Shown here one piece after another: positions 1,950 through 30,253 of a stretch of DNA of 64,000 bases. Below the pieces are notes generated by a model. The model ran no database searches. It was given only the letters and a program-made list of their open reading frames with translations, and was not told the DNA's origin. Within the stretch, counting starts at the first letter, position 1; each line of letters opens with the position of its first letter. A program made the translations under genes and the position numbers. This stretch comes from a virus. Its lineage: Duplodnaviria > Heunggongvirae > Uroviricota > Caudoviricetes. The stretch is taken from positions 43,394-107,393 of IMG/VR virus record IMGVR_UViG_3300028805_000051; one strand, given 5' to 3'.

Positions 1950-2193
1950 TGGAAAAAATGGATTTCTAGTTACTAAAGTTATAGTGGAATATTCACAACC
2001 TGGAGATGGTTGTGAATCCTGTGATAATGAACAAGTTCTTAGACTTGAAGCAATGGACAATGGAGTTGCTCCATTTATTCGTATAAGTACTCCTACCGGA
2101 TATTTTTCTATTGCAGATTTAGATGACCTAAAACCAATATTTGAAGATTTTAAAGAAAAAGTAAATTATGAAGAAAAAAATAGTTGCAATTAG
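1933..2193 (+). CDS. Hypothetical protein
   Basis: 86-aa ORF packed between neighbours; ends TAG-TGA (2191-2196), so it terminates in either genetic code. Confidence 0.65.
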   Translation: MMKWYDGKNGFLVTKVIVEYSQPGDGCESCDNEQVLRLEAMDNGVAPFIRISTPTGYFSIADLDDLKPIFEDFKEKVNYEEKNSCN

Positions 2194-2848: not shown

Positions 2849-2994
2849 AAGAATTACTTCGAAAAACTATTATACGTTGGTTTGTATGTATACTATGGGA
2901 GGGAAAGCATGATTATCATAAAATATCTCCCATGGATATACATTATCGTTATTTAGCTGAATGCAAAAGATGCCATAAGCAAAAGGTGTTTTAA
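2845..2994 (+). CDS. Small Cys/His-rich hypothetical protein (49 aa, not in the ORF track)
   Basis: MKELLRKTIIRWFVCILWEGKHDYHKISPMDIHYRYLAECKRCHKQKVF*; ATGA overlap with the upstream gene; contains CxxC. Confidence 0.55.
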   Translation: MKELLRKTIIRWFVCILWEGKHDYHKISPMDIHYRYLAECKRCHKQKVF

Positions 2995-3044
2995 TATATT
3001 GTTCAAAGTTAGATTTTGTTTATTTTAACATTTAAAAAAATAAT

Positions 3045-3680: not shown

Positions 3681-3740
3681 ATAAAGGGCGTAAGCATTAA
3701 TCTCGTTTGAGGTTAGTGTTTACGCCCTTATTTTTTTTAT
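3681..3740. terminator. Bidirectional intrinsic terminator between the convergent + strand and late gene blocks
   Basis: Long hairpin AAGGGCGTAAGCATTAATCTC-GTTT-GAGGTTAGTGTTTACGCCCTT with G:U pairs, A-rich on the left and a T-run on the right. Confidence 0.85.
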
Positions 3741-6700
3741 TAATTATCATCTTTTCTTCCGTTATCACCTATAGGTCTGCCTAGTGTATTAATTTTTACA
3801 TAATCTAATACACTTTCCCTAGTTCTACCAACAGCAGCTAACTTTACTAAAGTATCATACATATCAGTATTACCAGAAATACAAGATGATAATCTTTTAA
3901 CAGTATTAGTCGTTGTAGTTATAGAAAATGGAGTCCATTGCATACCTCTACCAAATATAGTATTCATAAAGAAAAAGTCGTCAGTTGATGTTTTTAACAT
4001 AGCTACTGTATTTAACATAGCAGTATTAATTATAGCATCTCCTAAATCTTCATTTCCAACTTCTTTAGTGTAATCTTTTGCAGCTGTTTGCAATGCTGGA
4101 GCAATTAACATTCCAAGTAACAGCATCATTAGTAAATCATACCACCATTGAGATAAATTAGCTCGATAAGCTGTTTTTAAATTTTCATCTGGATTGTTTG
4201 CAAATTCATTATATGCATTAGAAAATGATTTAAATAAAGTTAATACATTTTTATTATCCTCATCTTTAAAATTTTCATATCCAGTTTTTAAAATATTTGA
4301 AAGAGTTACAAATATTCCTTCTTGATACTAGCCCTACCAAACCATAAATGGAGTATTAGTCACTTCTGTAGTTGGATTTCCTTCATCATCTTCATAATAA
4401 TAAATTGGATTTCCTTTATCATCTTTTTCAGAATAATGAACCCATTTACCAGTCATACGAATACCTCCTGGAGCCATAAATTGATTCTTTTTAGATGACC
4501 AGAAAGTATTCATTTGCATAAATAAAGCACCAGCAGTAGTAGATTGAATTAAAGATTTCTTTTCATGCGAATAATATCCATATACCATATCAGCCATAGA
4601 TTTAATACTTTCAGCCTCCAATACTGTATAAGCTCTTGGTAATGGTAATGGATGTTCAACATTTACTACAAAATCTACTAATTCACCATTACTGTTTAAA
4701 TATTTAGCATTTTCATTCTAAAATTGTTTAGCAACTGCTAAATATCTTGCTTTTTGTTTATTAAACTCATTTTTTAAACTTTCTGGAATTTCATTTTCTT
4801 TGCCAGCATATTTAGCAAATATTTCATAACGTTTATCTTTAGTCCAGTCATAATTACCATGTTCATCATGTGCTTCAAAACAACCATCAGCTCTCATATG
4901 GGCACCAAAGATAGTCATTCTATTATAGAAGTCAGGTCTTGAGGCAAAATGGAAAGCAAGATTATTAAAATTAAACATACCAAATTGATTTGGAAGAATT
5001 TTACTACCATAAGTGTTCATATCCATATCATTTATACCATATACTTCATTTAATACTCTTGCTAAGGATTTATTGTTACTAAAATGTCCTAATTCTTTAT
5101 ATATCCAGAAAAAGCTGTCTTTAAAGTTTTTGGCAGAAAATGCTTCAGTTCCGTCTGGATTTTTTATTACTAGCATAATGTCTTTCCATAAACCATCAAT
5201 AGCCTAATATAACTATCTTGGATTAAAAGCTAATGCTAGTTTAGAAGCACCCTACATAAGTTTTCCAGCCATAAATGATAACTAATTCCATTTTGGATCT
5301 TGTATAGACATATTTAGTACTTTAGCAGTAATAAAGTTATGTAAATACTCGATATCCTCAGCAAATTTATCGTTTAAAATAAAACTTTGATATTCTAATT
5401 GATATGCTACAGCTTTTAATACTGGAAATATTTTATTAATATTATCCTTCATTACATAACTAACACAATGTGCTGTAGTTAGGACTTCAAGATTTCTTTC
5501 CCAAAAATCAATACCTCTACCATTAGGGTTACTTTCACTTTTTGGCTCTAATACAGTTTTTCTATATTCTTCATTTTCAAAAGCATCAAAATTACTTGAC
5601 ATTTCCCATAATTCAAAGTTTTTATTTTTTGCTTTTGCCATACGATTTTTTAAAGCCTAATCACCTGTTTGCTTAACAACATCTTCATCAGTTAAAAAAT
5701 CTCTAAAAAATTCTTGAAGATTTTCCTTATTAGGAATTAATTTACTAAATGAATCTTTTATAGCATACCATAAACCTTTATTAGCAATTTTAGAACTAAA
5801 AGAACCTCTCATTAATGGAGCTCTTAAATATTTAAAAGAATCTTCAGAATTTAATAAAAATTCTAAATCCTACATTGTGTGTATCTAATTAGAATATCTC
5901 CTACTATTTATTTGAAATAAACAATATTTTAAATATTCTTTTTCAGTATCAGTCATTGTATGGTCTTTAAATGGATTTTTAAAAATAATATCGTCAGGAT
6001 AATCATCATCATACATATTTTCAAATAAAGAAGCTTCATTTCCAACAGTTTTTGATTTTAAATATCCAAAACTTTTTTCTTTTCTTAATTTTTCTCCAAG
6101 CTCATATAATTTTTTTGTAACAAATTGTACTTCATCTCTAACATTTTGATAACCGGTATTTAATTGTCTACCTACTAAATTTAATAAGTCACTATCCAAC
6201 ATACCAGGATTATCAAGACTGTTAGCACTCCATCCTTTTGTAAAAGCTTCTTTAAGTCCAGATTGATTTAAATACTTATGATGGTCTTGTAATTGTTGTC
6301 TAAAATGTACACCATCTAAAGCACCAATAGCACTATGTATATCAACTAATAATCTATAGGCTTCACTTTTATTTTGATCATTAAGTGTTTCTTGTTTAGT
6401 ATTGTGCTCTAAATTAAAAGTATCAGAAATATCTTGAGCAATTTTAACTAAACCACTTCTTATTGCTACAATATTATCAGTTGGTAACTGATCAAAATCA
6501 CTTAATGCAGAAGTTACTTTTTTGAACCTATGATTTGGTGGATTAGCACATATTTCTTTAATTCTTAATTTTACTAAACTTAAGTAAGAAGCAAATTTAC
6601 TTTTTGTAAGGTTATTCTGCATTGGATGTTTTTTATCCAAATCACATAATTCCTTAAAGTTGTAAATCAGTTCTTCGTTGCTTGCTGTAAAACCTTCATC

Positions 6701-8686
6701 AGTTGCCTAATTAAAAAGCATAATATTACCTATAACACTTTCATTTTGAAATATATCTTGCATTTCATTTAAAGCAGCTAATGTTTCCATTAACTTTATA
6801 TTACCATAAGTACTAGCTAATACTAATTCTCCTGGTTTATTTTTAGCTACAATATCCGAAACAAATGTTCCAGTTAATGTTTGTCTATTTCCGCCAAGTT
6901 TTATATTTTCTCTAAATTCATGTGCTGAAGTATCGCACACTAATACGTCAATTCGTTCACTAAATATATTCTATACTAATATAATTCCCAAACTATCTAA
7001 TGCTTCAGAATAACAATTTAAAATACGATAATCTGGTGTAGCATATCTATTTAAAATAGTTTCAAGTCTAGGTGAGTATTTTAATTCAATAGGTTTATTT
7101 GGGTCATTTATTGCATCCTACAAAGCAGATTTAATTGCTTGTGTCTATCCTTGTACATAATTCTTAGATTCCTCTATATTTAATCTTGCAGTGTGAACTT
7201 TATCAATTAATTCTTCAAAAGTATCTCCTTCATATAATTTTCCATTAAACTAACAAGTGTATTTTTTAGCATTCTTTTTTAATTTATCTGCTTTTTTAAG
7301 TTTAAGAAATTCTTTAGTATTTTCTCTTGTAATTTCAGACTATTTAGCAAATGAAGTAAATTTATTTTCAGAAAACGATTTAACTGCATCTAGAATATCA
7401 CCATCTGCTATTATTTTTCTATTTAAAGGTAAAAATTTATCAACATTTTTATTAATATTATCAGAACCAAATCCTTTAATATTTAATTCCTCTAATACCT
7501 GATCTTCTACAGTAACAGAATCAAATGTTAATAAAGTTCTAATATCACCTTTTTCTAAATCAATATTATGTAACTAAAAATTATTAAATTTTATTGGTGC
7601 AACAAAAACTTTGGAATCACCTCCTAATGAAAATCCCATTCTTTCTAACATTCTCCTATAAGTAGCTAACTAATATGAAAATGTTAATTTTTTTGAAGTA
7701 TCATAATCAATATAATTTTTAGGAGATGTTTTATAATCAATAATCTACATTGCTCCATTTTTATCTATTACAAGCAAGTCAAAATTACCTACTAAATTAG
7801 TAATAGATTTATCTCCTGAAAATCCATTAATAGCAGTAATTGCAGATACTTCAGGCATAAATAATAGATCTTGTCCAAATTTATCATTTAATTCTTTATG
7901 TAATTTTTTACAAGCTTCTAATGTAGAGTCAATTACTGAATCTGGAATAATTTCAGAAAATTTTATTCCTTTATATTTTGCATATTTTGGATTCTATGCT
8001 GTTTTATCACTAATCAAATTAAAATTAGTTAGTGAATTTTTCATAGTTTGTTTTAAAGCATTATCATCAAATATTTTATTATTTATTGCTTTCCAATACG
8101 ATTCAAACATTCTATGTATTCCAGTTCCCATAAATCCTTGCATTGGCCAAGAAGCTGAAATTAATTTTTTACCTTTTTCAATTTGATCTGGAGTAGGAAT
8201 ATTTGTTATATCCTATGGTCTTACTCCTTCTCCAAATACAGCATTTATTTCATTCTACGTAGCTATTTTACTACCACCTCTAGTACCATTCCAATAAGAT
8301 AAGTCGTTCCAATCATTTCTTATTTTATTTTGCCAATAATTTTCCTCATTAAATATTGGAAATAAAATATTACCGTATTCATCAACATATTCAGTTAATC
8401 CTCTAGTTACTGGAATATGACCTGGAGGTAACATATCAGTATCATAATCTTCAAATATATCTGATTCTAATCTTATCTATTCATATCCCTACATTTTTTT
8501 CTTTGCTACCTCATCACGTTTAGTGATTATAGTGTTAGCATTTTTTTGTTTAGTAGAGTAATCAAAAACAATGTCAGTAATAGTTCCATTATACTTTAAA
8601 CTATTAACAATAAACTCGTCAAGAGCTAATTCTGAGTTGAAAACTCTACCATTTTTATAAGTAAAAGTACATTTCATATTACTCAC
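3740..8686 (-). CDS. Giant virion cargo protein (~1648 aa, TAG=Gln) with a PD-(D/E)XK RecB-like nuclease domain
   Basis: Track ORFs 3740, 4334, 4718, 5282, 5885, 6707 and 8489 share one frame, separated by TAG; motifs GTGIHRMFE, GNFDLLVID, IIDYKTS and YQ(TAG)LATY at ~7650-8150; ends TAA. Confidence 0.85.
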
Positions 8687-9755
8687 ATTTTTGTATTAAT
8701 TCACCATCTTCTAATAATTTAGATTTTATATTAGCAGTTTTTCTATGAATAGCTGCTAAATCCATTATAGTTAGTGGTGTTTGTTTTATAATTTCAGATT
8801 TAGTTTGAATTGCTAAATCAAGTAAACTACCTTTAATAATATCTTCTGCTGGAAGCATTTTCACTGTAGTTTCTCCCATTAATACAGAATCAATATTTCT
8901 TGTAATATTATATAATAAATACTAAATATCAGATTCTTTCATAGAATCGAACTCTGTGTTATATCCAGATAAAAATTTAGCAAATTCAGTTACAAAGTAT
9001 TCCTCTAATAAATCGTTCTAAGATTTATTACCAAATTTAGACTGTAGAGTTTCTAAATCCACATTTTTTAATTTAGATATTATATTAATATATTGATCAG
9101 GATTTGTGTACCTCATACCTCCTAAAAATATATGTAACATTTCATGTATTGGGGATTCTAATTCAGCTAATTCTGTATTTACATATATATTACCATTAAA
9201 GACAAAAGCTTTTGCTATTTTAGACTGGTCTGGTAAATCTTTAAATTCATCAGAATATTCAAAATCTGAAGAATCAATTGGAATTATATTGATTCCATAA
9301 TATTGTTGTAATTTAGATAATGCATTAACTAATACTACTCTTCCACTTTCAGGAGTACTTTCATAATTTAATTCAAAATTATTTTTAACAGTCTCAGCAG
9401 TAGGTCTATGTTTTATTTCAACAAAAAATTTACCATTTCCAATGTTAAATCCCATTATTTCTAAATCTCTATGTATATTATTTAATTTAACTATTGCTTG
9501 TTCAAAAGATTCCTCTCCAGTTAAATTTAATAATGTATTAATTTCTGCTACCTACGAATTTCCAACTTTTTGAACATTAAGTTTTTCCTTTAAATATTCT
9601 TCAGAATTTACATTAGGTAATTCATCTAAATTAGGAAATCTATCAAATTTTGTTAGATAATACTAACACCAAAAATCCAAAGTAGTCTCTGGAATACCAG
9701 CCATATTTTTCAATGACTGGTATTCCCCAAGACTCTTATTTATACAACTTGCCAT
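8679..9755 (-). CDS. Virion cargo protein with a zincin HEXXH motif (~358 aa, TAG=Gln)
   Basis: Starts MASCINK at 9755, in frame with track ORFs 9018 and 8679; FVFNGNIYVN...SPIHEMLH; ends KCE-TAA. Confidence 0.8.
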
Positions 9756-9760
9756 TATTT

Positions 9761-12700
9761 TTAACAATCAGTCTTTAAAATATCCATTAAATCTTCTGCA
9801 GATATATCTCTAATAAACTAACTACCTAATTTATTCATTATTCCTAATTTAATAAATAAATCTGTCATTGATTTGGCACCTAATATTTTAACTTTTTCTA
9901 AGTCCTTAATATTATTCCAAGTTATTCCTTTGTATTCAGTTAACTCACCATTAACTGGAATAACTTGTTCTTTAATGGTACTCATACTTAAGTTATTTAC
10001 TACAGTAGGATTAGTAATTGTATTATCAATAACATAATAATTAGATTCATCTATTTGTCTTAAGAAAAATGATTTTCTTTGATTTTCTAAAGCTTGTGCA
10101 GCTTCTCCATCATATTCACCACTTTCACTATAACTACTTTCATCATTTTCTGAATTATCCTAATCATAATCTATATCAGGACTATCATCATTTGGTAACG
10201 ATTTCTACTTTTTATGTTTATTAGGATCTAATTCCAATAATACAGTTTTACCAGTAGCTGGATTAACTTTTCTAATATAAGGTAACCCAGTAGTAAAGTT
10301 ATTATCTATAGGAGCAATTTTCTTTAAGAAATTGATTAAATCATTTTTACCAAATTGTTTTATTTTTGCAAATATATAATCTGGAGATGTTTTCTAAAAA
10401 TCAAAGAATTTCTAAATTAAATCTGTTTGTCCTTCAAAACTTTTTTTACTTGTATCAAACATATATGATTCAAATAAAGTAGTTAATGAATTTTCTCTAA
10501 CAGCATTTTGATTAACAATTAGATTATAAACATACAAAGCATCTAAGAAATGAATATTACCCAATTCTGGGATTTTGACATCTTTTATAATGTTTAATCC
10601 TTGTTTATAATGAGCTATTTGTTCTTCTTCATATGTATTTTCAGGTAATAGCTTAGTCTATGTAGCTAACTTAATTAAAGTATTTTTGTCTAAAGTTTTA
10701 TCAGTTTTAATAAAACCTAATGATTTTAACAATTCATTATTAGGATATTTACTTTTTAAACTAGGAATTACAAACTATTCAAATATATATTTAAAAGTCA
10801 TATTTCCTTCATATGTTCCTAACGTAAAATTATAATCAGTTGGGGCATTTACTAATTTTAATGTTCCGTCTGATTGTTCTTGTAATACTTTAGTATTACC
10901 AGAATTTGGTAATTTACCTTCACCAAATCCAAAATCATATGTCTTTAAAAATTCATCAATAAAACTTCCATTTATATAATCAATAGTGGATGATAGTAAT
11001 TTTTCTCTAGAAGTTTTATCTCCCCTCATACTATTTAAATAATACTTAGATATAAAGTTAGTCATATTCCATACAGAAGACATAGAAGATGTTAATGTAA
11101 ATAATGCTGCTGCAGTCTACATATATCCATGATAATGAGGTACTGTAACAAATGCTTTAAATATATTTACACCAAACTTTAATTGATCATAAGTATCAAT
11201 AACAAGCTACTAATATTCTGAATTTTTTACAAATTCAAGAAAATCTACTTGATTTAAATTAGGCTTTATTAATAAATCATCTGTAACCCCATCATTAGAC
11301 ATTAATTTTCTATTATAATCCTATAATGGTTGTAAAATTTCATTCATTACTTCTGATGTAATTCCTCCCTATAATGATTGAATAGTATCTACTCTCGAAT
11401 TTAATATCCCTTCAAAACGACGTATCCAATTTATTTGTTCACTTAAGGAATTTGGAAGTCCCTAATTAAGTCTGGCTCCCATAGTAAATGACTGCATTTC
11501 TCCTAACATAAAACAAAGTTTCTATATTTCATTAAATGCATTCAATTCCTATCCATCCGATGTTAAAAAAGTACTAAATGTTACAGAATCTTTTAATCTA
11601 CTCCAATCTCTTAGTTGTTCTTGAGTTCTCTTTATTTTATCTAAAGTAGATTTTTTAACTGCACTAGCTGTTAAACATTTTTCAAATGTTTTATACTATT
11701 CTGTAGTTAATTTTTCAAGATTTTTTACAGTTGGATTATTTTTAAAGAAATCAGGTAATTCGTTAAATGATCTTAACATTTTGTTTAATACATTATCAAG
11801 ATCAAAATCTTTAGGTCCAATTTTAATAAATTTTAAAACTGATTTAACATCAGGATAACCAGACGCTCCAGTAAAAAAATTTGCAGGAATTAAATTAGCT
11901 ATTTTTAAAGCAGGTTCAGATGTTAATAAATTTATTAATGTTTTTACATCCAATCCTAGTGTAATTCCAGCTAAATATAATCCTATCATTGATTCCTAAG
12001 CATTAATCTTAGGTAATGTTGGATCTTTTGCATTATCTGTTGCAAGTGATAAGAATCCAGAATATAATAATGCTGCATCAACACTCTAATCAATTTCATT
12101 TAATGCCTATGCAACTTCTGGAGGAAGTTCAGTATCTAACTATTGATGTGAATTAGCTATTAATTTAACTAATTTTCCACAAATTTCTTGATTAATTAAT
12201 AAATTAGCTTTATCTTCCTAACTTCCATTATTTAATATATTACAAATGTATTGATAATATGCTTCAAATACTTTTAAACTAGAAGCAACAATACCGGTAT
12301 CTGTTTTACCTCCCATTGTAAGAGCCCTAGTTCTATACTGACTTGTTAAAGAACCTGGATCAGCATCATTAAGTTTTTTAGAATATGGTAAATCTGCAGA
12401 TAAATCTTTAATTGTATTTACAGCACCATCTTTACTATCAACAGATTCTTCTCCTTGAATTTGATTAACTGCATCTTTACCAATATTATACATTGACGAA
12501 GATACAAAGTTAATTAAAGCATTTGATACATCAACATTTGGTTTATTAATATATAAGTTATGTCTATTAATTATATCTTCTAAACCTTTTATATTAATAT
12601 TTTGAGGTATTCCTCCTAATTTATTAATTGTATTTAATAATGTTGACAATTTTTTAATATTTTCTACTGATGTTTTAAACATTAAACCATTATCAGTTTG

Positions 12701-15700
12701 TTCAAAAATATCATTACAAATACTCTAAATAGTTCCATTGTCATCAACTTTAGCATACTGTATTTCTTTTCCAGTTGGAAATGGTAAATTCTCAGATGCT
12801 TCTAATAATTCTTTAGAAGATAAATCCATAAATGGAGACCATTTAATAAATTCCCCGTTTTTAAATTTAAATCCTAATAAAGAAACTTTATCAATATCAA
12901 AGTCAGAACCTTGTAAATATATTTGATATCTGCTTACATAAGCTGTATTTAAACCACTTTCATCAAAACCTACAATTTTCATTGACATAAATGATTGCAT
13001 ACATTGAGCAGGAATACGAGCAGCAAGAATTTCCAAAGATTTCAAGAAAGATGTATGTATTTCTTTAGAAGACTTTAATTGATTTTCTAACCATTTATCT
13101 TTAGATTTTAAATCCTCTAAAGAAACTCTTTTTTGTTCTGGAGTAAGATCATTATTTTTTAAAATCTTTTGTATATTTTTTATTTTTGCTTTTTCATAAC
13201 TTCTATATTCAGAAATAAATTTTGAAAAAGCTTCAATACCTTCTTCTGAGTGTATTATTTTATTAATAAATCCATTTTCAACTTGTCTTTCTTCTCCATC
13301 TATTGTATAAGTTAGATTATCATCTAAAGTTCCACTTTCTATAAAACTATCAAACTTCTTAACAAAAAATTTAGCAGGTTTTGAATCAGATTTATCGAAT
13401 AAGTCTATTATATCAGCTAATTTTTCGTGGGATTTAATTCTAGATGAAATATTTACTCTTACATGTTTAATAGCGTTAAGATAAAAATCTACATTTTTAG
13501 TCTTTATTAAACGTACTTTACCATTAGAATAAATTTCATCTTCTTCAGAACTTAGTTGTTCTACTGGGTTATTTTTATAATCTAAATACCAAAGTTTTCC
13601 AGTTTCATCTTTTACTGGAGTAAATGATAGTTTTCTAAATCCTTTAGGAACATCATCAGTAATTAAATATTTATTATTACCATCAATTGTAATTAATTCT
13701 ACATCAAATTGACTATCAAGTAAATGAACTTTTTCTTCTAAACTTCTTTCTAAGAAAAATAAATCATTTTCTGAAATATCTTTAACATCATCATTAGTTC
13801 TTAAACCAAACTAAGATTGATATAATTTGGACATAATAATTTCATAAGGTTTAACCTTAATAGATGATTTGTCTAACTATATCTATTTTAATCTTATTTC
13901 ACCTTTTTTATGTTGAATTAATTCATTATTAAAATTATAATGCTCCCCATCATTTTCCCAAACTCCATCTTCTACAACTACAGTATTTTGATCATAATAA
14001 TTACTTAATGAGAATAATGCATTCTATAATACTTCTCTAATTTCATCTTTATTAGCACCTCTCCAAGCCTATTTTACAACAGCTAAATCCCAAACATTAT
14101 ATGAATTCCCATTAATATCTTTAAATTTAACATTATATCCAGCAAGATCTCTTCCTCTAGAAACTACTTCTTCTATAGGAGATCCAGTTTGTTCAATATA
14201 TTGTCTTAATAGATAATAATCTTTAGGAGTATTAACTTTAAATACATCACCTTCATAATATCCAGGAACATAATAAGTGGTTCCTAATTCAATATCAGCT
14301 AAATCAATTACTGGTTTATTAGGAAGATCATTAATATCCTAACCTTCATAATAAGATAGTAATCTTCCATCATATAATTTAAATATTCCATTTGAAGGAG
14401 ATAATACATCCATTGTTCCTGGAAATTTCAATTTAATACAGGATTTTACCAAAGTTGCTGATATTTTTGACATCATTTGTCTTAATAATACTGAATTGTC
14501 TATAGGTAATGTCTGTTTTATAGTTTCATAATCCAAAACTCCTTTATTATCCTATATTGCTTGTAAAGCTTGTTGTACTAATAAATCAGCTAAAGTTTCT
14601 GGATTTGCAGATGTTTTACCTGGTTTTAAAGTTTTGAAAATAACTAAAGTTATAAAGTTTTCTATTTTACTTTTAGCTCTATCAATATTTCCAACTTTTG
14701 AATAATCAATAGAATCAATAAAATCTTTTAAAGTTATTTGAGTTAATGAACGTAATGCTTGATAAGCACGATTAGCCTATTCAGCAGTATATCCTCTTAA
14801 ACCAAGAGCATTTAATACCTATGTCATCATAGATAATACTGATTCATCAGATTCATGCTCTGCATTTAACTGTGGACCAGCATCATATAAGTTTTCATCA
14901 GTATAAGCTAATTCAGTACTTAAATCATATAAAAATGATTTTTGATTTTGATTAGTAGATCCAGATTTAGTTGCTTCATGTGTTGGGAAATAATGTATCA
15001 TAGCTTTTTTCAAATACTAATTTACATTTTTCTAACTAGTAGGTTTACTTGTTAAAGCTTTTCCAACACTATTTACAACATATGTAGCATATTTAAATGA
15101 ACTTTCATCATATTCGTTACCTTTTATTTCCTATTTACCAGAAATTTGATCTTCAGATAAATTCATAGAATAGGCACCTCCAAAAAATAACCAAATATCA
15201 TGCACATCCTTTAATAAAACTTTTTGTTTTATACCATTAGCTAAAAATTCAGTAAATCCAGTTTCTGGATTAAATACAACATTTGTAACTGTAACTATAT
15301 CACCATTATAAACCTGATGATTATCTAGTGGTTGATCATTTTCATCATAAACTTGTAAATAATTTATATGAGCATCTGTGTTTCCTAGCCATACTCTCTT
15401 AAATGAGAACATATCAAAGTTTAAAGATCCTCCTAAATAATTTTTAGTAATATCTAAACCCTGATTTTTTCCTTGATAAAATGGAATTAGTTCAGATACT
15501 TTTCCTCTTAACCCTCTATAATTTAAATATCTGTAAAACTTAGAATCACGTATTCTCATATTAGTTACTGGGAAAGAAGCACATTTTACAAATTTATTTA
15601 TACCAGTCTATGGGTTCTAACTCCAAATAATGTCTTTTTTATCAACACCAACAGCACTACCTTTCAATGATAAATTTTCAAGATAGTTAGTAATACCGTT

Positions 15701-18700
15701 AGCATACATAGCTCCATCATCATCTAATGGATTTGCCTCCTATCCAAATATTGTTGCAACACTATCTCTAGTATTTTGTATAGTGGCCATTTTTACATCA
15801 GAGGGCAATCCATCTAATTCATTTAATTGGAATTGATGTTTAGCTCCTGATTCAATCACATTACGTTTAGTTTGCTATGCATATGCTTGTGCAGCGTATG
15901 CTCTTATGTTTTTATGATTTTTTCCTGGATGTTGAGCATATGAACCTACCGATGTATTCATATATTCTTGTCCAAATAAATATCCTAAAGTATTGAATTT
16001 TTCAATTAAAGGATGAATTTGAATTGAAACTTTATGGTCTATTTCAGGATGTTTTTTAATATTATTGAAATGTTTTTCAAATTTCTCAATTAAATTCTTT
16101 TTTCTTGTAGAATGTATTCTAGAGTCTGCTTCTACATTTACTTTTTTAGTATTTAAAATTTCTTCAGCTGTTTTTTGATTCTTACGCTCTGCATCTAATA
16201 ATTGATAATGAGCATTTAATACAGTTACAAGCTGATTAAATGAAAATTCTGGTGACGTTAACCATTGTTCGACTGTTGCATACTGTTCAAAATCTTCAGG
16301 AAATAAATAATATTTAGCATTTTCAAATGCATAATTAACTACTCCTATTTTTCTTAATGATTCTAAATCAGTAATTCCAAATGAATAATCTTTTTCAGCT
16401 AATTCATCTGTTTCATCTGATTCACTACCATTATCAGAATGCTTTGTAAAATCAGTATAATTTAATTTAGCTAATACTATTTTTCCACCTCTAGCCCAAG
16501 TATGATTTTCAAAGTTTACTAACTTTTCTAAAACACCTGGAACAGTTTTTGAAAATTGATTTGTAGTTGTTATATAACCACCATCTTGTATAAAATCCCT
16601 TACCCATTGTTCATTTTTCTTTTTAAAAAATTCTTCAGAATTTTTATAAGATGTATTAGCTAAAGTTTCATTAGGTACATGACTTCTAAACCAAGATTCA
16701 TCTTTTACACCCCATTTAAATAATTCCTAAGATATAATATAATTTACTCTAAAATGCAATTTATCATCAGAAATAAATGAATAACTTGTAGCAATTGCTG
16801 CTGGTTCACCTTTTTCTTGCTATGTTATTTCTAAAGTATGTAATAGATTTGTAACAGCATCAGAAGCTCTTGTTCTTAAATGTTTATTTATTTGTTTTTC
16901 TATAGCCTTATAATGATCACTGTTTTTATCAAGTATTGCTACTTCAACTTCAGTTTTTATATCATTATAATTTGCACCAGAATTCTTAACTAATTTTATA
17001 ATATAATCATTTTTTATTGACTAATATATTGGATTAGTATATTGAACAGATCCATCTAAACTAAAGATAGATTTAAGTTTATCTTCAATAAAAAGATCTA
17101 TAGCTTTATTAATACCATTAAAATTGGATTCTAATCCAAATAAATCAATAGATTTAGCAATATTTAAGAACCAAATAACATCTTCTCTATTTTTATAATT
17201 TCCTATTTTAACATCGCCTTTAGATACTTGATTTAATTTTAGCCATTCCTTTTCAATAGCATTAAAAGATTTTTTATAAAAACTTCCAAGTTCTTCTTTA
17301 GCTATTTGTTTAATTTCATCAAGAGATAAATCTTTAATTTTCTTTCCATTTTTTAAAGCATGTAAATTAATTAAAAGTTTTAATACTCTTGGTTTATCTG
17401 AAATCACACAAGGCAAAACTCTCATCATAGCATTTTCATCATCACTTAGATAAGCATTACAAAAATCATATACAAAATCAAAAGCACCACTTTCTGCTGG
17501 AGTAAATTCAGTAACTTTTTTATTATCACCATTAGTAGCTTTTAAATCTCTAGCAATTTCATATCCAGAATATGCTTCATGTAACATTTCTAAATCATGC
17601 CCTAGATAATCTTCACCCAATTGTTCTCCTCTATATATCTAGGCACAAGTTTTATCCATTAATTGTGAAGTGGACATAGTATTAATTGTGTTACCATCAG
17701 CCCCTTTTGCTGAAGCTTCACGCATTATTCCATTTAAAATATCTAAAGTATTACAAATAGACTCCACTGATTTTTTCATTACATTAGTTGGAAAAGACTA
17801 AACTTCTTTAGAGTCTTTTTGCATTCTTATATCTTTCTGTTTATTATGTTGATAATATTTTAATGCAGTATTTTTTGCGGAAACTAAAGTTTCAGCTTTA
17901 ATGGATTCACAAGAAACAGAATAATTATAAAGTACAATTGCAGCAGTTTCTAATAATTCTGATTGTGTTATTGATAGAGATGGAAGAAATGTTTTTTCAA
18001 AATTTGAAACATTTAAATTTAAAATATCTTTTATAAATTCACACAAATTAGAATTTTTAGTTAAATCAATATTATTTATAGATCTAAATGTTTTTCCACC
18101 ATCTTTAGATAAAGTAACTGTTAATGATGGAGTAACTTTTAATATAGTTTTTCCATCATTAAATTTTATAGATATGAAACTTTTATCAAGTTCAGTAGAT
18201 AATGTTGTTCTGTCTAATGTAAATCCATTAAATTTTTTAATACCTTTATTAAAATTTTCTTCATCATAATATTGATCTACAATTGCAGAAAAATTACCAT
18301 TAATCTAATCTTGATAATATAAGGTATGACTTCCTAAACTTGCTTTACCTAAAGTTTTTATTTCAAAATTTCCTTCAACATTCTATTCATATTGAGTCAT
18401 TGGTATATGACTCTAATTATTAAAATAATGTGTTATATATTGATAAAAGGATTTAGGCTATGTTTTATAATGTTCAATATTTCTTGATTCCCAAGCTTGT
18501 CTAATTTTAGCACTTGGATCAAAAGTTTGTTTATAAATAGAATAAACTAAATCATTATGTGCTGCTTTAAAATTTTTTATATTTATGTTTAAATCATATT
18601 TTTTATCAGCAGCTAATAATTTAAAAATAAGCGGAATTACAAATGTTCCATCAGAATAAGTTTCCTATAATAAATCATACATCGATTTAACAACTGTATC

Positions 18701-19867
18701 AGTTGTTCCGTCTTCATTTATGACAACTTTTAATAAATAATCATGTTCTTCCTATGTTAAATAATCATTATTTAACATTTTATTTATAGACACTTCATTA
18801 AAAGGAATTTTTGACTCTTTATCAAACTAATATTTCTTAATTAATCCCCACACATAAGTAACTTCTCTTACATTCAAGTTTCTAATAGGAGTATCATTTT
18901 TACTTCTATCTAATAAAAAACGTGAATTAAAAAATAATTTAACTATGTCAGAAGTTTCTTCAACAACATCATTCACTTCAGCCTCAGAACTCCAATTATT
19001 TTCTAAATTATAATTCAATCCACTAATTTGATATTTATAATAATTCTATATTAATTGACATGGATTAATTAAATGTTCAGGTCCAAATCTTAATGGATCT
19101 ATTTCAATTAAATTACTATAAAAACTTTTTATTAAATTATCAAAATTAATTAATATAAAATAACTTTGAAAAGCATCCAATAAATTTTTTTTCTTTGGAT
19201 CTTTTAAAGAATCTTCATACAAAGCATTAATAGCTTCTGAAGAAAAGTTTTCAAAATATTGTTTCACTCTAGCTATTTCAAAAGTACTTAGAAAAACACT
19301 TCTTTTTTCTAAATTTAATGGAATATTAGAATAAACATTTTTCCAAAGTTCTTCTAAATAGTGTGCAATATTTTTATTTAATTGTTTTTGTGTAACTACT
19401 TCTTCTCCAGTAGTAACATCGAATAGAACAGCATCTGCTAACATTTTATTAAAACGTTGTTTCATATCAGCTAATGCCATAGATGTATATCCATAGGTTT
19501 GATAAATAAATGTATCAGAACTATCAGCATAATCTGTCCCATCAATATTATCTTGTTTACTTTTATTAGAATCTGCCTATCTATCCTAAACATTGTTAGG
19601 ATTAATTAGACTATCTAGTACTTGTAAACTTTTATATTTTAATATCCAAGGGTACTTTAAAGATACCATTGGAGAACTTATAATTCTAGATAATATATTT
19701 TTAAATTCATCAACACATGCACTATTAGGTTCATCTTCATATATGCTATTGAATTGTGCATTTATAATATCTAAAAATTTTTCTTCTGTAAGATTCTACT
19801 TGAACTCACTACGAAGGGAAGAAGTTACAGTCTTCTTCCCTTCTGGAGTTAAAATACTACAATTCAT
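9761..19867 (-). CDS. Virion-packaged RNA polymerase (crAss/phi14:2 gp66-like, ~3368 aa, TAG=Gln)
   Basis: Eleven track ORFs from 10775 to 19046 share one frame; catalytic GSDFDIDK and RIPAQCMQSFM motifs at ~12880-13030; starts MNCSIL and ends TDC-TAA. Confidence 0.9.
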
Positions 19868-19868
19868 A

Positions 19869-22800
19869 TTAAATTGAACAATAAGGATTTTCTTGATTTT
19901 CTCCTATTAAATATTCTAAATACTATTTAAATTCTGAATCACTTATAGCATCTTTTAAATCATTTAGATCGGCTTCAACATTTCCATAAACATCTTTTAT
20001 TAATATACTATTAACAAAATTTTTAATAGTACTATTATTAATAAGATTATCTATTTTATCTGGAGTCGTATTTAATATATTTGCTAAAATATCTTTTATA
20101 GTTTCTCCCTAATATCTAGAGTTTAAAATATTTCTTAATTTAATTAAATTTATTTGTGAAATACCTGCCCCAGTAGATCCTTTTTTAGGCGGAAATTTTA
20201 TTTCAAATGTATTAGGATTAATCTCTATATCATAATTAGATAAATCAGTTATACCAGAATTACCCATAGCATCTCTAATTTCATCTTCATCAACAATATA
20301 ATTTACATCACCTACTTTAATTTGTTTATAACTTAAATTAGGTAATTGAGAAGAAACATCAGTAGTTGGATCTAATTTTTTCTCTTTTATATATTTTGAA
20401 AATTTAATATTATTATCTTTTTCATAAACATCAATAGTATTAACTTTCTACTAAGGATTTATAATAGGAAGTAAATTTCCAGCTTGTCTTCCTTCATATA
20501 AACTACTATCTAATAAAGAACTTTTACCACTTGTTCTAGCTAGTTCTTTTTGTTGTTCATAAACACTAGCTTCTTTTCTAGTTGGAGAAAAATCCTTAGT
20601 TATAAACGCACTTGTACATAATGTTCCTCTTATTTTTATATCATCAGTATTAAGCTTTGCTTTAATTATACGATTACTTTGAGTTCCAATTATATCTTCT
20701 GATTCTCCTTCGTGAGAATAAGCAATTCTAGTATAAAATCCATGTTTAAAGCCACCATCTTTTAATAATTGTTCCATTTTCTAAACATTAGGTAAGTTTG
20801 GATCTGGATTTTCGTATTCTATAGCAAAATTATTAATAGTTCCTAATGATAATAATCTAGTTAATTTATCAAAAACGTTAATATATCTAGTTTTACCCTA
20901 TTTAATATTTAATAATCCAACTGATGCCTATAAACTATCAAATGCATATTCTCCTAGTTTTACTACTAATTCATTATCTACACCTGTATTAGTAACAGTT
21001 ATATTAGAAAGTTGTTGAACTAATTGTTCCAATTCATTAAATATAGCATCACTATTTACGTTATCAAATATTTTTAATCTATTCTTTATAAATTGCTTTC
21101 CTTCATCAGATTTAAATAATTGTTCAATTATTCTAAATGAAGTAGTCGTAGTTCCTAAAGATTTATCATAAATTTCAGAAACTTCTTTATTATAAATACT
21201 ATCAATATGTTTTATATATTCTGCAAATGATTTTGCAGGTGGTTCTATATAAACAATGGATAAATCAGTTCTATTCTATCCATTAATAAGTGCATCCCAT
21301 AATGCTTCATCAGAAGTTTGTTCTGCAAATTCAAATAAATTATCAGTAACAATAATAAATGGATGTCCCGCTTTTATAGTAACAGTTCTGTTTTTCTATT
21401 GAATTGTAATATCATTTGGAGCAATATAAGCATTATTAGATATTCTAAATAAACCACTCTTTAATAATGTACTATGAGAAACAGTTTCTCCAGTATATTC
21501 TACAAAATCATCAACATTAATAATTGTTCCAGATTCCGACAATCTTAAAGTAAGTCCAGAATTTTCCCAATCTCTTCCAGGAATTAAAGGTTTTCCTTCA
21601 GAATTATTAAGAAATTTAATCTAACCACCCATTGGTAAATTATGAGTGGCAATAAACATATTAATTTGTCTTAATAATTTTTTAGCCTAAGGATGATTTT
21701 TTAAAGAACCTGTAGTTAATTCAGTTTTTAATTCTCCTAATAATTGCATGTATAAACCATCAGTATTAGGTGCTAATTTAATTAATTCTTCTCTACGGTT
21801 AGTTATCCAATCAGCAATTTGTTCAAATCCATTAGAAAATGCTAGTGTTAATGGGTTTGTATCAGTAGCTACTGGAGTTTCAAATAATTCATTACCACTC
21901 TAATCAATTAACATCATTGATATTGTAGCATCATTCATTTGTTGATGCATTTCAGTATCATTAATCCAACGTGGAACTGTTTCAGATTTTGGTTTATAGT
22001 AACGTCCTTTAACAAAATTTCCTAAGAATTTTCTTGATGGACTGTTTCCTTTATAATTTGGATTAGTCTCCCAAACTTCAGGTCTTTGACTTACTTTATA
22101 AAAGAATCTAACACTTACATTATTAGGAAATTTAAATCCATGTTTAAGATTTAAACTTATAGCATTTTCTATAATAGAAATAATTTCCTATTCAGATGTA
22201 GCTAAACGAGATGCAGATCTTATTATTCTAAGAGTTTGTTTTAATTTTTCTGCAGTTTGTGATCTAATTGGTTTAGTTATATCTAATCCTATTATTTTTG
22301 CTAAACCAATTGCATTATCTAAACGTACATCAGCCCATTCTCCAAAATGAACACCATCTTGAGATAATCCATATTCATCAACATTATAAGAATGATGCAT
22401 CATTTGTGTATCTGAACCATTATTATCTATTAATACATCTGGATTTAAATTTACAGAGTTTAAATCTTCTACCTATTGAGATGAATCACTTTTAGTTACC
22501 TACTACCAATTTGATAATTCTGATACTTTAATTATTTTTATATCATTATTATCATTAATATTCTTTACAGTTAATTCCTATTTATTAGAATCAAAACTAA
22601 TTATTTCATAATCATTATTACCATCTGTAATTAATGTACCTATTGGTAATGGGGAAGTTTGTACTGGAGTTGGGGGTGCTGGTTTTATAGGTTTTCTTCC
22701 TATAAATGGTAAATCATCTTGGTTTGGGTTACCATAAACTTTTTCATATAATTGTTGTTTATCAGAAATAAATTTAGATTTAACAGCATCAGTTATTGGA

Positions 22801-25800
22801 GAATCTTTTGACGAATTATCTAATACTGATTTTTCTATAAATTTCTTTATTCCTTCATACCCAATTATTAATGTACCTCTTTCAGCTCTAGTTAATCCTG
22901 TATATAAATCTTTTAAAAATTGCTTTTTGTTATTATCAGGATTTTTACCAAGATTAATTATATAATATGGATTTTCATCACCTTGCGCCGAAAAACCTTC
23001 TTTAAAATCAATTATATCTCTATATTTATCTTCCTAAGAAAGTTTTTTCATTACATCATGTACTAGATTAACAGTATCTGTATTATTTCCAGTATCATTT
23101 ATATCATATATATAACCAAGTTTTTTATTATTTCCTAACTAAATAGTTCTATCTAATAATGCTCTAACTTGATTTTCAAAATCTTGTTGCCAAGATACTT
23201 CGTCTCCTTTTAATGGAATATCTATAAGTTTATCACCTAGTAAACCATGTTCAGGTGTTTCAGAATATTTAAAAGTTACAAGGTGTGGAGTATCTGTTTG
23301 AAAACTTTTCTTCAGTTCTTCTTGAAACACCATATTATCAGAATCTTTAAACTTATTATCAGTTCTTAAAGATTCCCCTAATTTAGGTGCATGTATAAAA
23401 TTAGTATTATTAGCCTATCCATAATATGTTGGAATGAACATTTCACTTCCATCTGCTTTTTTAATTTTAGCATTGTCTAATTTATGATTAATACCAGACT
23501 AATCAAAATCTCCAAAAGTTAAATGAACACATCCAGCTTGTTCAGAAAATTGATCTACTAGTAGTAACGATGGAACAGACATATGACTAACCTCATCAGT
23601 TATAATTAATGTAGGTTTTTCTGTTGTGTTTAATCCATAATTATATGAAATTGGTTTACCATCTTCATAAATTAAATCAGTTGCATCAATTTGTAAATTT
23701 CCATCTGAATCAATAATTTCATTCCAAGTGTGTCCAGTCTATGGGTTTACTCCACTTATTTTCTTCATTAAAGAAGAATGTGAAAATACTTTATCAGTTT
23801 GAATTCCTAGTATATTTGCAAATTCTTTAGCTTTCTACTCTGATGTATGTACAAACCATACATTATCCAATAAGTGTGCAGTATTTGGATTAGCTTTAAT
23901 TAATTTAATTAAAGTTTTTGCAAGACCTTTACTTTTTCCCGATCCTGAAATACCTTCATTTAATATTGTATGTAAAAAATTAATTGACACATCACTATCA
24001 GATCCAAAGAAACTTTCTGGAATTGTTCTAATTTCAGTTTTTCCTTCAGCAAATTTACTTAAAGCAATATTCCAAGCTTTTCCAAAGTTTTTAAATACTT
24101 CATTATTAAGTAAAAATGCATAAGATACCATTGCAGCAATTTCTTGTCCTATAACTGGGATTAATTCTCCATCTTTTAAAGTACTTTGATAAAGTGTCAT
24201 ATATTTTGATGGATCCATTGCTGCGGTTGCTGCAAGTATCCACATAAATCCAGATTCAGAAATATTTTCAGCATTAATATTAAGTAAATCAGTATCAAGC
24301 TAATCAATACCAGATGTATCTGGATTTAAGAATTCAGCTAATTGAGTTGGATCTGCTAACATTGCAGAATTTTTACTAAAGAATGTATGTAAAGAATCAA
24401 ATAATTGTTTTATTTCATTTTGATAAGCTTCTTTTTCATTATCATTTAATGACCAATTATTTGAATTAGTTTGAAAATTACCTTGTAATCTTCTTAATAT
24501 TTTAAAATTATTTGGATCATTTAAAGTTTGTCTCAATTCCTATGCTGCCTAATCATCACCTGGAGGAAAATTAGGTAAATTAAATCTAGAAACAATTTTA
24601 TTAAATAATAAAGTATTACTTCTAACACTAGTTCTAGAAAATTGACTAATTCTATTATTTGAATTAATATCAACTAATGTTTTGTAATATTTTAATCTTG
24701 CCTCAATTTGTTCTAGTTCATTATATATAGTATCAGCAGTATTAGCTTCAATTTCTGCTAATTTTGCATTTGGATTTGTATTTGACTTTGAATCAAGTTT
24801 ATTAGTAACTTTGTTATATCCAAATAAATCAGTAGCACTTGCATTATCAGTTCTAGCTGCTTGTATACAAGCTTTAGCTAATTGAATCACTGATAATGCA
24901 TTTTTTATTTGATTCTCAGTATCTTCTCCATTATATCCTATTTCTTTTAACGTTCCTGATTCTCCAGATTTATAGAAATATTCATCTAAATCTTCGATTA
25001 ATTTAGATATACTTACAGATTCTACTTTAGTAGCAACACTAAATTTATCTAAAAATTCAGAAATAGGAGAATAGTTAACATTGTCTAATTCTCTAGATAA
25101 TTCAGAAATATAATTACTTACATTTAAATCATAAGAAGTAAAGGAATCAGGATCCATAGGATCTGGATAAAGTAACATATTCTACATAGCAGTTAAAGTA
25201 TGTTGTAAATCTTCTTTCACTGCAGCAGTAATATAATTACTATTTTTTATTTCTTGTAATAACTATTTACCGTTTTTTAAATCATTATTAAAAGTATCTA
25301 ATAAAACAGTAATAAACTAAGCATCTTTCTAATCTTCTGATAAACTTTGATCGTGTAATTTTCTATCAAGCTCGTCCCAAGATATAGATAATTTTCCTAC
25401 ACTTGACATAGCTCTCATAAAATGTATTAATGAAGCATATTTTGATTGATACCTAGCTTCATATGCTTTTATTGCTTCATCATCAGTAGGTAATTGCTAT
25501 GTTGATACTGTTTGTTTAAATGTATATTCTTTAAATTTACCAATTGCAGAATTTGGGTCAAAATATGTCTATGCAAATGTTTTTATAGTACCAGAAGCTT
25601 TTTCATTAACTTCTGTAAATATATCATATAATTTATCTAATAAAGCAGTACCTTCACCTTCTTGGTAAAATTTATTAAACTCTTCAGTACCTTGTTGTAT
25701 TTCAGCTTTGTTTAATTGGGATAAAGGTTTTCTATATTTATATTCTAAAAAAGTAGGTAATGTCAATCTAGCATTTTCGAAAGCTTCTCTTATTGGAACA

Positions 25801-28331
25801 CTAGTTTCAAATAATATTTTCTTTGTTAATTCTGTAGCCTTTATTCCATTTTTATAATCTTCTAGAGCTTTTTCTTCTTCTTTAATTTTTTGTTCTAAAG
25901 CAGCTCTTTCTTGAAGTCTTGTAGGGTCCTAACTCAGCTATTTTTTCTAAGAATCTGGTGCTTCAGCTATAGCTCTATCCATTCCAATTAAAGCAGCTCT
26001 ATCTTTTGCTAAATTTTCAATAAGTTCATTATAGTCTTTAATAAAACTTTTTGCAAATAAAGAATGTCCTATAGTAACAGCTCTAAATTCTTTTAATGGG
26101 TCATCAATACTAGAAATACTATTTAATAAACTCTAATTTGATATATTAGCTCCCTCAACATCTAAAATACCTTTTACTAAGTCAACGGCCTGATGCATTA
26201 CTTTTTTAGCATAATCATTTTGACTTATATTATTTTCATCAGCTGGTAAAAATATTGTCCCTTCACTATTTTTTGGTTTTACTTCTCCATAACGAGTGTA
26301 CTCTAAATTAGCAGGAACAGTGGATAATCTAGTAGATGCCCATAAAGTTTTATCAACAGTTTTTAAAAATTCGTCCGATTTACCTTCTTTAACAATTTGA
26401 ACTAATTGTTCAAATGCTTTTTCTTTATCCATATTAGCAATTGCAGAAGCTTCTCTAAAATCTTGAGTAGCTTGTCCTAATCCACCACCAATAACACCTC
26501 CTACAAAAGATAATGCATATCTATTGAATAAATCTTTTGTATTACCATCATTAAAGGTAGTTAAATGTGTATCACTTCCAGCTAATTCATATCCAAAATT
26601 ATATAATGTTTTTGTAAGATCATATAATAATTCTTCAGAAGTTTCCTCAACACCTTCTCCTAAAGCATTAGCAATCATTGCTTTTCCAGTAAGTGCCAAT
26701 ACTCCTTTTTTATTTATTTTATCACTGTAATCTTGTAAAGCTTTTGATTTTCCAATATGAAGAATTCTTTTTGCCCAATTAGCCATTTTACCAGCATCTT
26801 GAGTTCTAGTTATTGCTGATTCATCCAATCCTTCATTTACTAAGTTTTTAGCTATTTGTTTCCATCTATTAGATTCAGCACGTAATTCAGGTAAAATCCA
26901 TTTTCCCAAATCTGAATTAATAATAAGAAATTCCCCAGCAGCATAACCTAGTGTTAGTAAAGCAGCTTCAAGTTTTGATGCTCCTTCTTCTAATGCTTCA
27001 CTATATGAATCTTTAACAGTAATTCCAGTCATATATCCAATAGATAATGCTTTACCAATTTTTTGATAATCATTCATATATTTTGCAACCTATTGTGTTG
27101 CATATAATTGATTCAATGCTGGCATTTCTGCTGTTATAGCTGCTAAATCAATACCTTTACCAGATTCTATTAAACTTTTTAATTCTTTTGAAGTTTTTGT
27201 ACTAGCTTCTTTAAGTTTTTCTGCAAACAATTTTTCCTGATTTTCAATACTCATTCCTGCACTACCTTTAAATAATGCTGGAGGATATTTAAACATCCAT
27301 CTTTGTTCTGCTAATTGTGTAAATACGTCAGCAGACATATTAATTATATTCTCTAAGGCCCAAGGATGTTCTCTACTATAATCTGAAGATGAATATCCTA
27401 GAGACTCAATATATGCATTTACATTATTAGATAAATTATTGTCTGCAAGCATACGTATTCCTGTTGCCATTAAATCAGTTAGATTCATAGCAACACGTGC
27501 ACCTATATACCAAGGTGAAATAGCTGGAATAAAAGCTGGTACTATTTTTAATGCACTTCTGGTTATAGAACCCAATATATTTTGTTCTTTATCATCGGAA
27601 TCAAATGGATCGAATTTATTAAATACAGACCCATCAGTAGTTATAGTATCCCATTTTGAAAGAACTTCTCTACCATAAGCACTTCTATTACCTAAAGTTT
27701 CATAATAATAAGTTCCTTCACTATTTAATTTTTTATCACCTTTCTTATGTTTTACTACTTTTCCAGTTACTGGATCCTCATGTGTTCCATCCTCATCCCA
27801 TTGAGCTAAAACTAAAGTTCTTCCAAAATTTTTAAACAATCCAGCTTCATTTGGAGAATCAACCCATTGATTAGTTTTAAAATCCCATACTTTTTGAGTC
27901 TAAGCTATTTCTCTTAATGATAATGGATTTTCTACAATAGAATCAACTGATGCTCCAAATCCTTTAAATGTTTTTAATGGATTTGGAGTTCTGTACATTT
28001 GTATATCATATCCTCTTCTTCTCTGACTTTCAGGAGCATAGATATCATTTCTATAAAATGAAGCATGCTACCCTATCTAATCACCTACTTCATTATTAGC
28101 CATTTGATTATAATTTACTAAAGCTAAATTATATATATTATCAAATTTTGTTTCATCAAAAGCACCATTAGTCTGGAAAAGAGGATTATTTTTTACATAA
28201 TCTAAATTTTTATAAGTATCTTTAGATTCAATAGATGTATTGTCAGCATTTAAACCAACTTTACTAAAATCAAAAGCATTGAATTGTAAATTTTCTATTT
28301 GGTTTAAAAATAAATCATTTTCCTTAGCCAT
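19869..28331 (-). CDS. Giant virion cargo protein (~2820 aa, TAG=Gln) containing an SF1 helicase-like domain
   Basis: Track ORFs 20451 to 28077 share one frame; motifs GISGSGKS, IITDEVS, GDFDQ(TAG), SAQGDE and YTGLTRA at 22870-23960; hydrophobic Gly/Ala-rich segments at 26400-27600. Confidence 0.85.
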
Positions 28332-30244: not shown

Positions 30245-30253
30245 ATATTATTT

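Follow-up and report, generated by a model that had tools for sequence, protein, structure and literature searches.

Conserved cysteines at the facing ends of four crassvirus RNA-polymerase cargo proteins suggest an end-to-end tie

Four contiguous proteins (P1 to P4), encoded on the minus strand at positions 3740-28331 of a crassvirus genome segment, carry a cysteine at every end that faces a neighbour in the series and none at the two outer ends. The segment, here called the window, is a 64,000-nucleotide stretch of the IMG/VR virus record IMGVR_UViG_3300028805_000051 (positions 43,394 to 107,393 of that record), and comes from a phage genome of 171 kb that is 94% complete and known from sequence alone. 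P1-P4 are probably the virion-packaged, host-injected RNA polymerase (RNAP) cargo set of this crAss-like phage, and the terminal-cysteine rule described below suggests that the cargo is tied end to end into one thread.

The first member of the chain, P1 (2820 residues with TAG read as glutamine; 19869-28331), begins MAKENDLF and ends NPYCSI before its stop codon. P2, the putative virion RNAP (3368 residues; 9761-19867), runs from MNCSIL to LKTDC, the small linker module P3 (358 residues; 8679-9755) from MASCINK to IQKCE, and P4 (1645 residues; 3740-8677) from MKCTF to a cysteine-free C-terminus, RKDDN, all on the minus strand. Cysteine was therefore present at 6 of 6 internal termini, 0-2 residues from the C-ends and at position 3-4 from the N-ends, with none at the N-end of P1 or the C-end of P4. 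At junction 1 the facing residues are P1 Cys2818, two residues before the C-end (19878-19880), and P2 Cys3 (19859-19861); at junction 2 they are P2 Cys3368, the last residue (9764-9766), and P3 Cys4 (9744-9746); and at junction 3 they are P3 Cys357, penultimate within the motif L-x-E-x-C-x-stop (8685-8687), and P4 Cys3 (8669-8671). All six minus-strand codons are TGT. The original prediction, made from the sequence of the window, had described this pattern of six internal and two outer ends; re-reading the sequence reproduced it and verified the coordinates, and its termini stood for P1, P2, P3 and the C-end of P4. Its start for P4, an upstream GTG (MSNMKCTF), did not: the ATG at 8677 is most likely the true start, because 54 of 54 homologs begin M-x(0-3)-C. 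The P4 cysteine lies in the first six residues under either start.

The pattern is highly non-random. Cysteine makes up 0.37% of the four proteins outside the termini, which gives a joint chance of about 8e-12 for the six terminal cysteines. As a genome background, 14 of the 254 termini of 127 other open reading frames (ORFs) have a cysteine (five N-terminal and nine C-terminal), compared with 6 of 6 in the chain (Fisher p about 1e-7). The scarcity of cysteine that had been claimed for the four proteins was borne out, at about 0.4% compared with 1.4% genome-wide, as was the statement that the neighbouring cargo genes lack the feature: inspection of the two cargo-type genes lying upstream and outside the chain (28334-32755; 636 and 822 residues) found no terminal cysteine, and the proteins have 1 and 0 cysteines in total.

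A survey of orthologs, the test that the original prediction had proposed, took in lineages in which these genes are fused or split differently and showed that the terminal cysteines are kept, with loss confined to fused junctions. A profile search with the P3 family yielded 830 relatives, and in the 150 best cluster representatives a cysteine stood 0-2 residues from the end in all 135 complete C-ends and at position 2-5 in 127 of 131 complete N-ends. In the four exceptions the sequence sets in only at profile position 11-12, and their starts seem to have been miscalled. For two N-extended calls without the cysteine (P0122 and P0165), the contigs show upstream GTG starts that read (M)SKC, and the preceding protein ends in DCE or NCE. 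Among the 54 full-length homologs of P4 (26-99% identity), every one has a cysteine at position 2-5, and in an unselected P4 alignment with a mean identity of 25%, Cys3 is among six invariant columns. The outer ends do not bear cysteine to an equal extent, as it was found within the last six residues of the C-end in 2 of the 54 P4 homologs and in none of the P1 N-ends seen in relatives.

The junctions themselves were surveyed in ten relative lineages and three cultured phages, taking those with both sides visible. About 30 junctions were covered; both cysteines were present in every one, and a junction with a single cysteine was never found. Junction 1 (P1-P2) is the least sampled, with six clean cases and crAss002, there being few full-length matches to the P2 N-terminal and P1 C-terminal queries. 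The tails of P1 homologs, written up to the stop codon, are CSI, NCKISII, NCKITII, NCKITIV and NCKLNI; the heads of P2 homologs are MNC, MNNC, MSNC, MAC and MNKC, and P2 tails in relatives are NMCP, KNPC, NGCGK, NGCK, ELICG, RINC, INCK, IDCE, VNCE, IICSA and LKDC. Overhangs at the junctions comprise 1-4 residues ahead of the N-side cysteine and 0-8 past the C-side cysteine. The terminal cysteines are conserved in at least three crassvirus families and at identities as low as about 25%.

The two outer ends have features of their own. One P4 clade (P0030, P0032, P0033, P0036, P0041 and P0054; for example L028, with its end at 14797) has an extra conserved cysteine 4-11 residues from the outer C-end, in the motif F/E-C-I/L-E, and so departs from the cysteine-free outer end found elsewhere. 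At the other extreme of the chain, the cysteine-free N-terminus of P1 is strongly conserved as M-x-KENDLFLNQ (window 28308-28331; homologs P0058-P0061) at about 30% overall identity, and may mark the leading end of the chain or serve it as a docking signal.

The rule was also found in cultured crassviruses. The consecutive virion proteins g067, g066 and g065 of the Cellulophaga phage phi14:2 (5398 residues) contain four cysteines in total, all at internal termini: that of g067 is its last residue, g066, the crystallised RNAP of 2180 residues, has two, at positions 3 and 2179, and the single one of g065 is at position 3. In the Bacteroides phage crAss001, gp47 has a single cysteine in 2341 residues, at -3, gp49 a single cysteine in 1349 residues, at position 5, and gp50 has Cys5, a cysteine nine residues from its end (-9) and one internal cysteine. 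The gp47 gene is on the strand opposite to gp50 and gp49 and is not adjacent to the gp50 start; therefore the feature belongs to the proteins and not to the gene junctions. In crAss002 (Intestiviridae, MN917146), gp32 has a single cysteine in 2020 residues, at -2. Its partner gp33 (4245 residues) has no cysteine at the annotated start, and the in-frame Met33 reads MSCT (L036 11073-11340); the true start probably lies 32 codons downstream of the annotated one. After gp32 there is a hairpin with a T-run behind it, which suggests that gp32 and gp33 are separate transcription units.

Natural fusions gave an indication of which cysteine partners which. P3 and P4 are joined in P0166 (2006 residues, L037) and in P0202 (1931 residues, L038), and at the fusion point both have a short cysteine-free linker where the split forms read L-x-E-x-C-x-stop and then M-x-C-x-Y. 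The reading frames are intact in the contigs, both fusions retain the N-terminal cysteine of P3, and the P2 upstream of them still ends with cysteine (IICSA and LKDC), L038 thus encoding a complete three-protein chain with four terminal cysteines. In a tree of the P4 module the fusions fall in different strongly supported clades, P0166 being sister to a split form at 100% support, and the starred branches force at least two changes; the exact placement of P0202 is uncertain, as it is a long branch. On this tree a peptide bond has replaced the cysteine pair at least twice independently, because P0166 and P0202 lie in different well-supported clades. Fusion removes only the facing cysteines and the other cysteine of P3 is kept, a pattern that fits pairing of each C-end with the N-end of the next protein and does not fit self-closure of the middle proteins. 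Conservation, together with the loss of exactly the two facing cysteines, lends comparative support to the proposal made at the outset, namely that each C-terminal cysteine pairs with the N-terminal cysteine of the protein that follows.

Interruptions of another kind served as a negative control. Insertions with a LAGLIDADG endonuclease gene split the RNAP ORF of several relatives, and no cysteine is present at the break. The insertion in L010 is missing from a sister genome (the intron-less allele of L012), that of L029 matched the group I intron model RF00028 at 73.8 bits, above the gathering score, and that of L010 gave two ordered sub-threshold RF00028 pieces flanking the endonuclease ORF. 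Judged by these matches the insertions are group I introns, and exist in DNA only; therefore no protein ends arise and no cysteine pair is expected. Introns with LAGLIDADG genes were located in the RNAP gene of L002, L010 and L024 (about 2994-4078 in L010), L029 (5456-6938), L031 (22696-23799), L034 (754-1757) and L037 (5104-6276). The homing introns of many relatives interrupt the RNAP exactly at the catalytic LQGSD/FDID motif (window site 12890-12904); P0056, a 96%-identical relative of P2, is interrupted at that motif, and the copy in the window is intron-free.

We consider it probable that head-to-tail interchain disulfides turn P1-P4 into a reducible pseudo-polyprotein. The C-end cysteine of each protein would pair with the next N-end cysteine (P1-P2, P2-P3 and P3-P4), the link being most likely an interchain disulfide in the mature particle, and the separately translated proteins would become one linear head-to-tail chain of about 8200 residues. 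With each cysteine within a few residues of a chain end, the cross-link would be formed almost without a side branch, and a partly unfolded chain could then be threaded through the narrow tail channel in one piece, N-to-C. Placement at the very ends makes sense if the linked proteins have to travel through a channel too narrow for folded domains. Such an arrangement would fix the order of the four proteins and their ratio at 1:1:1:1, and the reductants of the host cytoplasm would release the individual enzymes. A disulfide is favoured because there is one thiol per side without a conserved second ligand, because a redox-labile link offers a release step in the host cytoplasm, and because crassvirus virions contain intermolecular disulfides, namely those of the crAss001 gp57 dimer and of the tail hub and ring proteins (PMC10172136). 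In an AlphaFold model of a P3 homolog (predicted local distance difference test score, pLDDT, 93.5) both cysteines are in short coils beyond the first and last helices.

What has been reported for cultured phages gives this mechanism its setting. The RNAP-block proteins of crAss001 and phi14:2 are known from mass spectrometry to be in virions and are thought to be injected (PMC10172136; bioRxiv 10.1101/2020.03.07.982082), those detected in crAss001 being gp47, gp49 and gp50 (PMC10172136). Passage through the tail requires partial unfolding of the crAss001 cargo, with gp45 expected to leave in the N-to-C direction (PMC10172136).

Several points weigh against disulfide linkage. The support for it comes from comparative sequence evidence. 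Assembly takes place in the reducing cytoplasm of mostly anaerobic hosts, and no thioredoxin match was found in the phage's own 94%-complete genome; a search of the same genome for the Erv1 family also matched nothing, but it matched nothing in control genomes either and is uninformative. Internal cysteines have not been purged in this lineage, 16 remaining in P2 and 10 in P4, so avoidance of mispairing is not absolute, and only junction-specific flanking motifs are seen that could steer a C-end to its proper partner when there are three junctions. Some terminal cysteines are 7-8 residues from the chain end, eight residues following the C-side cysteine of crAss001 gp50 and seven that of P1 in L038, and crAss002 fits the rule only if gp33 starts at Met33. 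Complex prediction for a near-cognate pair, P0081 with residues 1-260 of P0022 (each with an alignment), gave a score of 0.11 with the mark at 0.32, and speaks neither for nor against binding.

A small thioredoxin/glutaredoxin-fold protein is encoded in the early region of some relatives (L026 22148-22465, L030 17287-17544 and L038 21672-21923). A role in virion thiol chemistry and a role only in nucleotide metabolism are both possible for it.

The pairing evidence is the same for a sulfur-sulfur as for a sulfur-metal-sulfur link, so that the paired cysteines might instead hold a bridging metal, in a clasp of the zinc or Fe-S type. This would still be a head-to-tail tether, and one that can form in a reducing cytoplasm, in keeping with cytoplasmic assembly and with the lack of a thioredoxin in the phage's own genome. 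Moreover, phi14:2 and crAss001 have exactly four terminal cysteines, equal to one tetrahedral site, and a glutamate two residues ahead of the C-terminal cysteine of P3 is common (L-x-E-x-C). We nevertheless think a metal unlikely. All families surveyed have a single cysteine per terminus, whereas known clasps and hooks have CxxC or CxC; a zinc clasp or zinc hook proper needs two cysteines per partner and was rejected, each terminus offering one. There is no second conserved ligand at the P1 or P2 tails or at the N-heads, a two-ligand site would be weak, and the number of cysteines tracks the number of breaks at two per break (six in the window, two in crAss002) and not a fixed cluster. A less likely idea again is that the terminal cysteines are unpaired, each working on its own at a chain end, for example as an attachment point for another virion component, as a site of modification, or as a packaging or ejection signal. 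Loss on fusion would also be expected of a cysteine that works only at a free end; however, independent sites would leave unexplained the outer ends without cysteine in P1 and P4 homologs, as well as the equal occurrence of C-end and N-end cysteines in neighbours, with no single-cysteine junction in the survey.

The very short overhangs on both sides of the junctions, and the natural occurrence of fused polyprotein forms, would agree with a thiol-based ligation (of the native-chemical-ligation or splicing-like kind) that joins neighbours by a peptide bond and discards the overhangs. This we regard as highly improbable, as the ends have no room for a Hint/intein fold, the N-side cysteine is not residue 1, and gp47, gp49 and gp50 of crAss001 have been reported from the virion as distinct proteins, each with its own mass (PMC10172136). 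Split inteins and trans-splicing were rejected in particular, since the halves need about 100 and about 35 residues and the overhangs amount to 0-8 residues past the C-side cysteine and 1-4 before the N-side one. The poorest account of the pattern, now effectively refuted, is that it arose by chance or reflects the nucleotide sequence where genes are tightly coupled, with TGT arising near stop and start codons. That all six codons are TGT and that junctions 1 and 3 share TAATATGAA-TGT would agree with it. Chance, however, would give the pattern with a probability of about 1e-11 to 1e-7. Homologs retain it at 25% identity and with varying spacings and overlaps, as do crAss001, with gp47 and gp50 on opposite strands, and crAss002, across a gap of 170 nucleotides or longer, and other tight junctions in the window do not have it. 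The position of the gp47 gene in crAss001, away from gp50 and on the other strand, excludes an explanation by gene junctions or translational coupling. Fusion at the junctions by read-through or frameshift was likewise rejected (the frames differ, and the crAss001 genes are on opposite strands), as were a lipoprotein-type N-terminal cysteine (there is no signal peptide, and the cysteine is at position 2-5) and an Ntn-hydrolase nucleophile, which would leave the C-end cysteine unexplained.

Compared with the RNAP cargo block of phi14:2 and crAss001, the window likewise has giant proteins encoded after muzzle and cargo genes, a putative RNAP with a DFDxD-type motif in the middle and a putative module with an HExxH motif after it, and the same terminal-cysteine rule. 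It differs in having four proteins and six terminal cysteines instead of three and four, the HExxH module being separate as P3 (358 residues), in having TAG-recoded genes, and in having internal cysteines that are reduced and not eliminated; the similarity of P2 to phi14:2 g066, the virion RNAP (vRNAP) of PDB 6VR4, is below phmmer detection. In some phages the three phi14:2-type proteins are fused (10.1101/2020.03.07.982082). The N4-like phages (Schitoviridae) also hold a giant RNAP in the capsid and expel it through a short tail, with cysteine suppressed (vRNAP gp50, or gp71 of DEV, co-ejected with gp51/52 or gp72/73; PMC11445570), but their functions are in one polypeptide of about 3500 residues with no cysteine, and no terminal cysteine pairs are reported for them, whereas crassviruses split an equivalent mass among 2-4 proteins and keep exactly the end-facing cysteines. 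The retained terminal cysteines stand out because suppression of cysteine in ejected proteins is a known general principle in Schitoviridae (PMC11445570); it is the exemption of the facing ends that is new, the suppression elsewhere in ejected proteins being already known. Terminal cysteines are not mentioned in the crAss001 atlas (PMC10172136) or in the phi14:2 RNAP preprint (10.1101/2020.03.07.982082), and targeted full-text literature searches found no paper describing the rule, in agreement with the initial impression that it had not been described.

Disulfide-linked cargo has a works-like analogy in the AB toxins of the clostridial neurotoxin and diphtheria toxin type, in which a single disulfide joins two chains, one of them is translocated unfolded through a narrow channel and cytosolic reduction releases the cargo (PMC6899712). 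These toxins are not homologous, their chains come from one nicked precursor and their disulfide is not end-to-end, whereas in the window proteins made by separate translation would be strung together serially, C-end to N-end. The cysteine pairs described here share one feature with translocated proteins linked by interchain disulfides, a single cysteine on each partner that is conserved and lost as a pair. They would differ from the structural disulfides of crAss001, which fix a rigid assembly seen by cryo-electron microscopy, as the proposed cargo links are serial and would be undone after ejection.

Crassvirales are the dominant phages of the human gut. That they as an order assemble their injected enzymes into a reducible covalent 'protein train', with terminal disulfides, 1:1 packaging and one unbranched thread in gene order that is uncoupled by host reductants, is a wider proposition for which we see the case as evenly balanced. 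If it is true, the train would do the work of the one giant polypeptide of the N4-like phages in a modular and evolvable form, in which each gene split or fusion is compensated by the gain or loss of one cysteine pair. The problem addressed is that of podovirus-like phages with several very large internal proteins, which must be delivered in a set order and dose through a channel that folded domains are too wide to pass. A conserved end-to-end tether would be a concrete answer to it, and one that can be tested, since virion preparations, mass spectrometry and structures exist for crAss001 and phi14:2; it would also account for the near-absence of cysteine alongside a few invariant cysteines. 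The terminal cysteines further provide an annotation rule for the RNAP block, as they allow true starts and ends to be recognised and splits, fusions and genes interrupted by introns to be distinguished, and the tether is a possible natural design for redox-releasable protein concatenation.

The functional labels first given to the four proteins were upheld to different degrees. P4 has a PD-(D/E)XK nuclease domain (about 7595-8131, minus strand), and its label as a nuclease agrees with a Pfam PDDEXK match. P1, P2 and P3 gave no Pfam or PHROGs match. The label of P2 as an RNAP draws on a DFDID catalytic-type motif at residues 2322-2326 (12890-12904, minus strand); a phmmer search of PDB with P2 residues 1900-2900 returned nothing at E<=1, so that the solved vRNAP 6VR4 went undetected, and a close P2 homolog gave a weak BLAST match to crAss002 gp33. 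P3, labelled a zincin, has the zincin-type motif HEMLH (9132-9146, minus strand), near-invariant in the family, with H204, E205 and H208 each at least 90% conserved in 91 sequences, but fold searches gave no clear match: Foldseek with the P3 model (pLDDT 93.5) found none at E<=0.001, and in fold comparison the best was VIA at Z 4.4, with a minimal metallopeptidase at Z 3.4. For P1, the helicase label is in keeping with a Walker A motif, the P-loop GISGSGKS (23931-23954, minus strand), an AAA_30 match being seen only in homologs and there sub-threshold.

An HExxH motif is found in the first chain member of crAss001 and crAss002, about 185-205 residues before the C-end (gp47 residue 2157 and gp32 residue 1814; L032 and L036). 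The arrangement of domains along the chain thus seems to vary among crassvirus families, because in these phages the motif precedes the RNAP and is not in the protein after it. Hidden Markov models of P3 and of the N-domain of P4 could not be placed on the fused giants found in crAss001, crAss002 and phi14:2, and so did not locate the internal fusion points in these. With tblastn, the window proteins gave just two distant unannotated records among GenBank phages; word-based scans of IMG/VR gave no matches with P3 alone or with the P2 N-terminal profile, and two lineages only with the P4 profile.

By its gene content the window belongs to a crassvirus, because it encodes a muzzle protein (crAss_MUZ, PF25731; 35651-40480) and a major capsid protein (Crass_capsid, PF23898; 51330-52754) and has a sub-threshold match to the ring protein PF24228. 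The cargo block sits in the structural module, downstream of the muzzle and cargo genes, and relatives share this gene order. With translation table 11 no large ORF is found within 3740-28331, and reading TAG as glutamine gives the four contiguous minus-strand ORFs and opens the entire late module of the window. Within the window only late genes, on the minus strand, contain in-frame TAG codons; there are none in the early genes on the plus strand at 115-3677, and the 171-kb genome encodes a transfer RNA (tRNA) with a CTA anticodon, a suppressor. Reassignment of TAG in this phage is credible because the late module opens, the plus-strand early genes need no TAG and the CTA tRNA is encoded. The genome has 27 tRNAs, including the CTA-anticodon suppressor and its own tRNA-Cys (GCA); these genes are outside the window, at G000:C1 137510-137581 and in a tRNA block at 146-170 kb.

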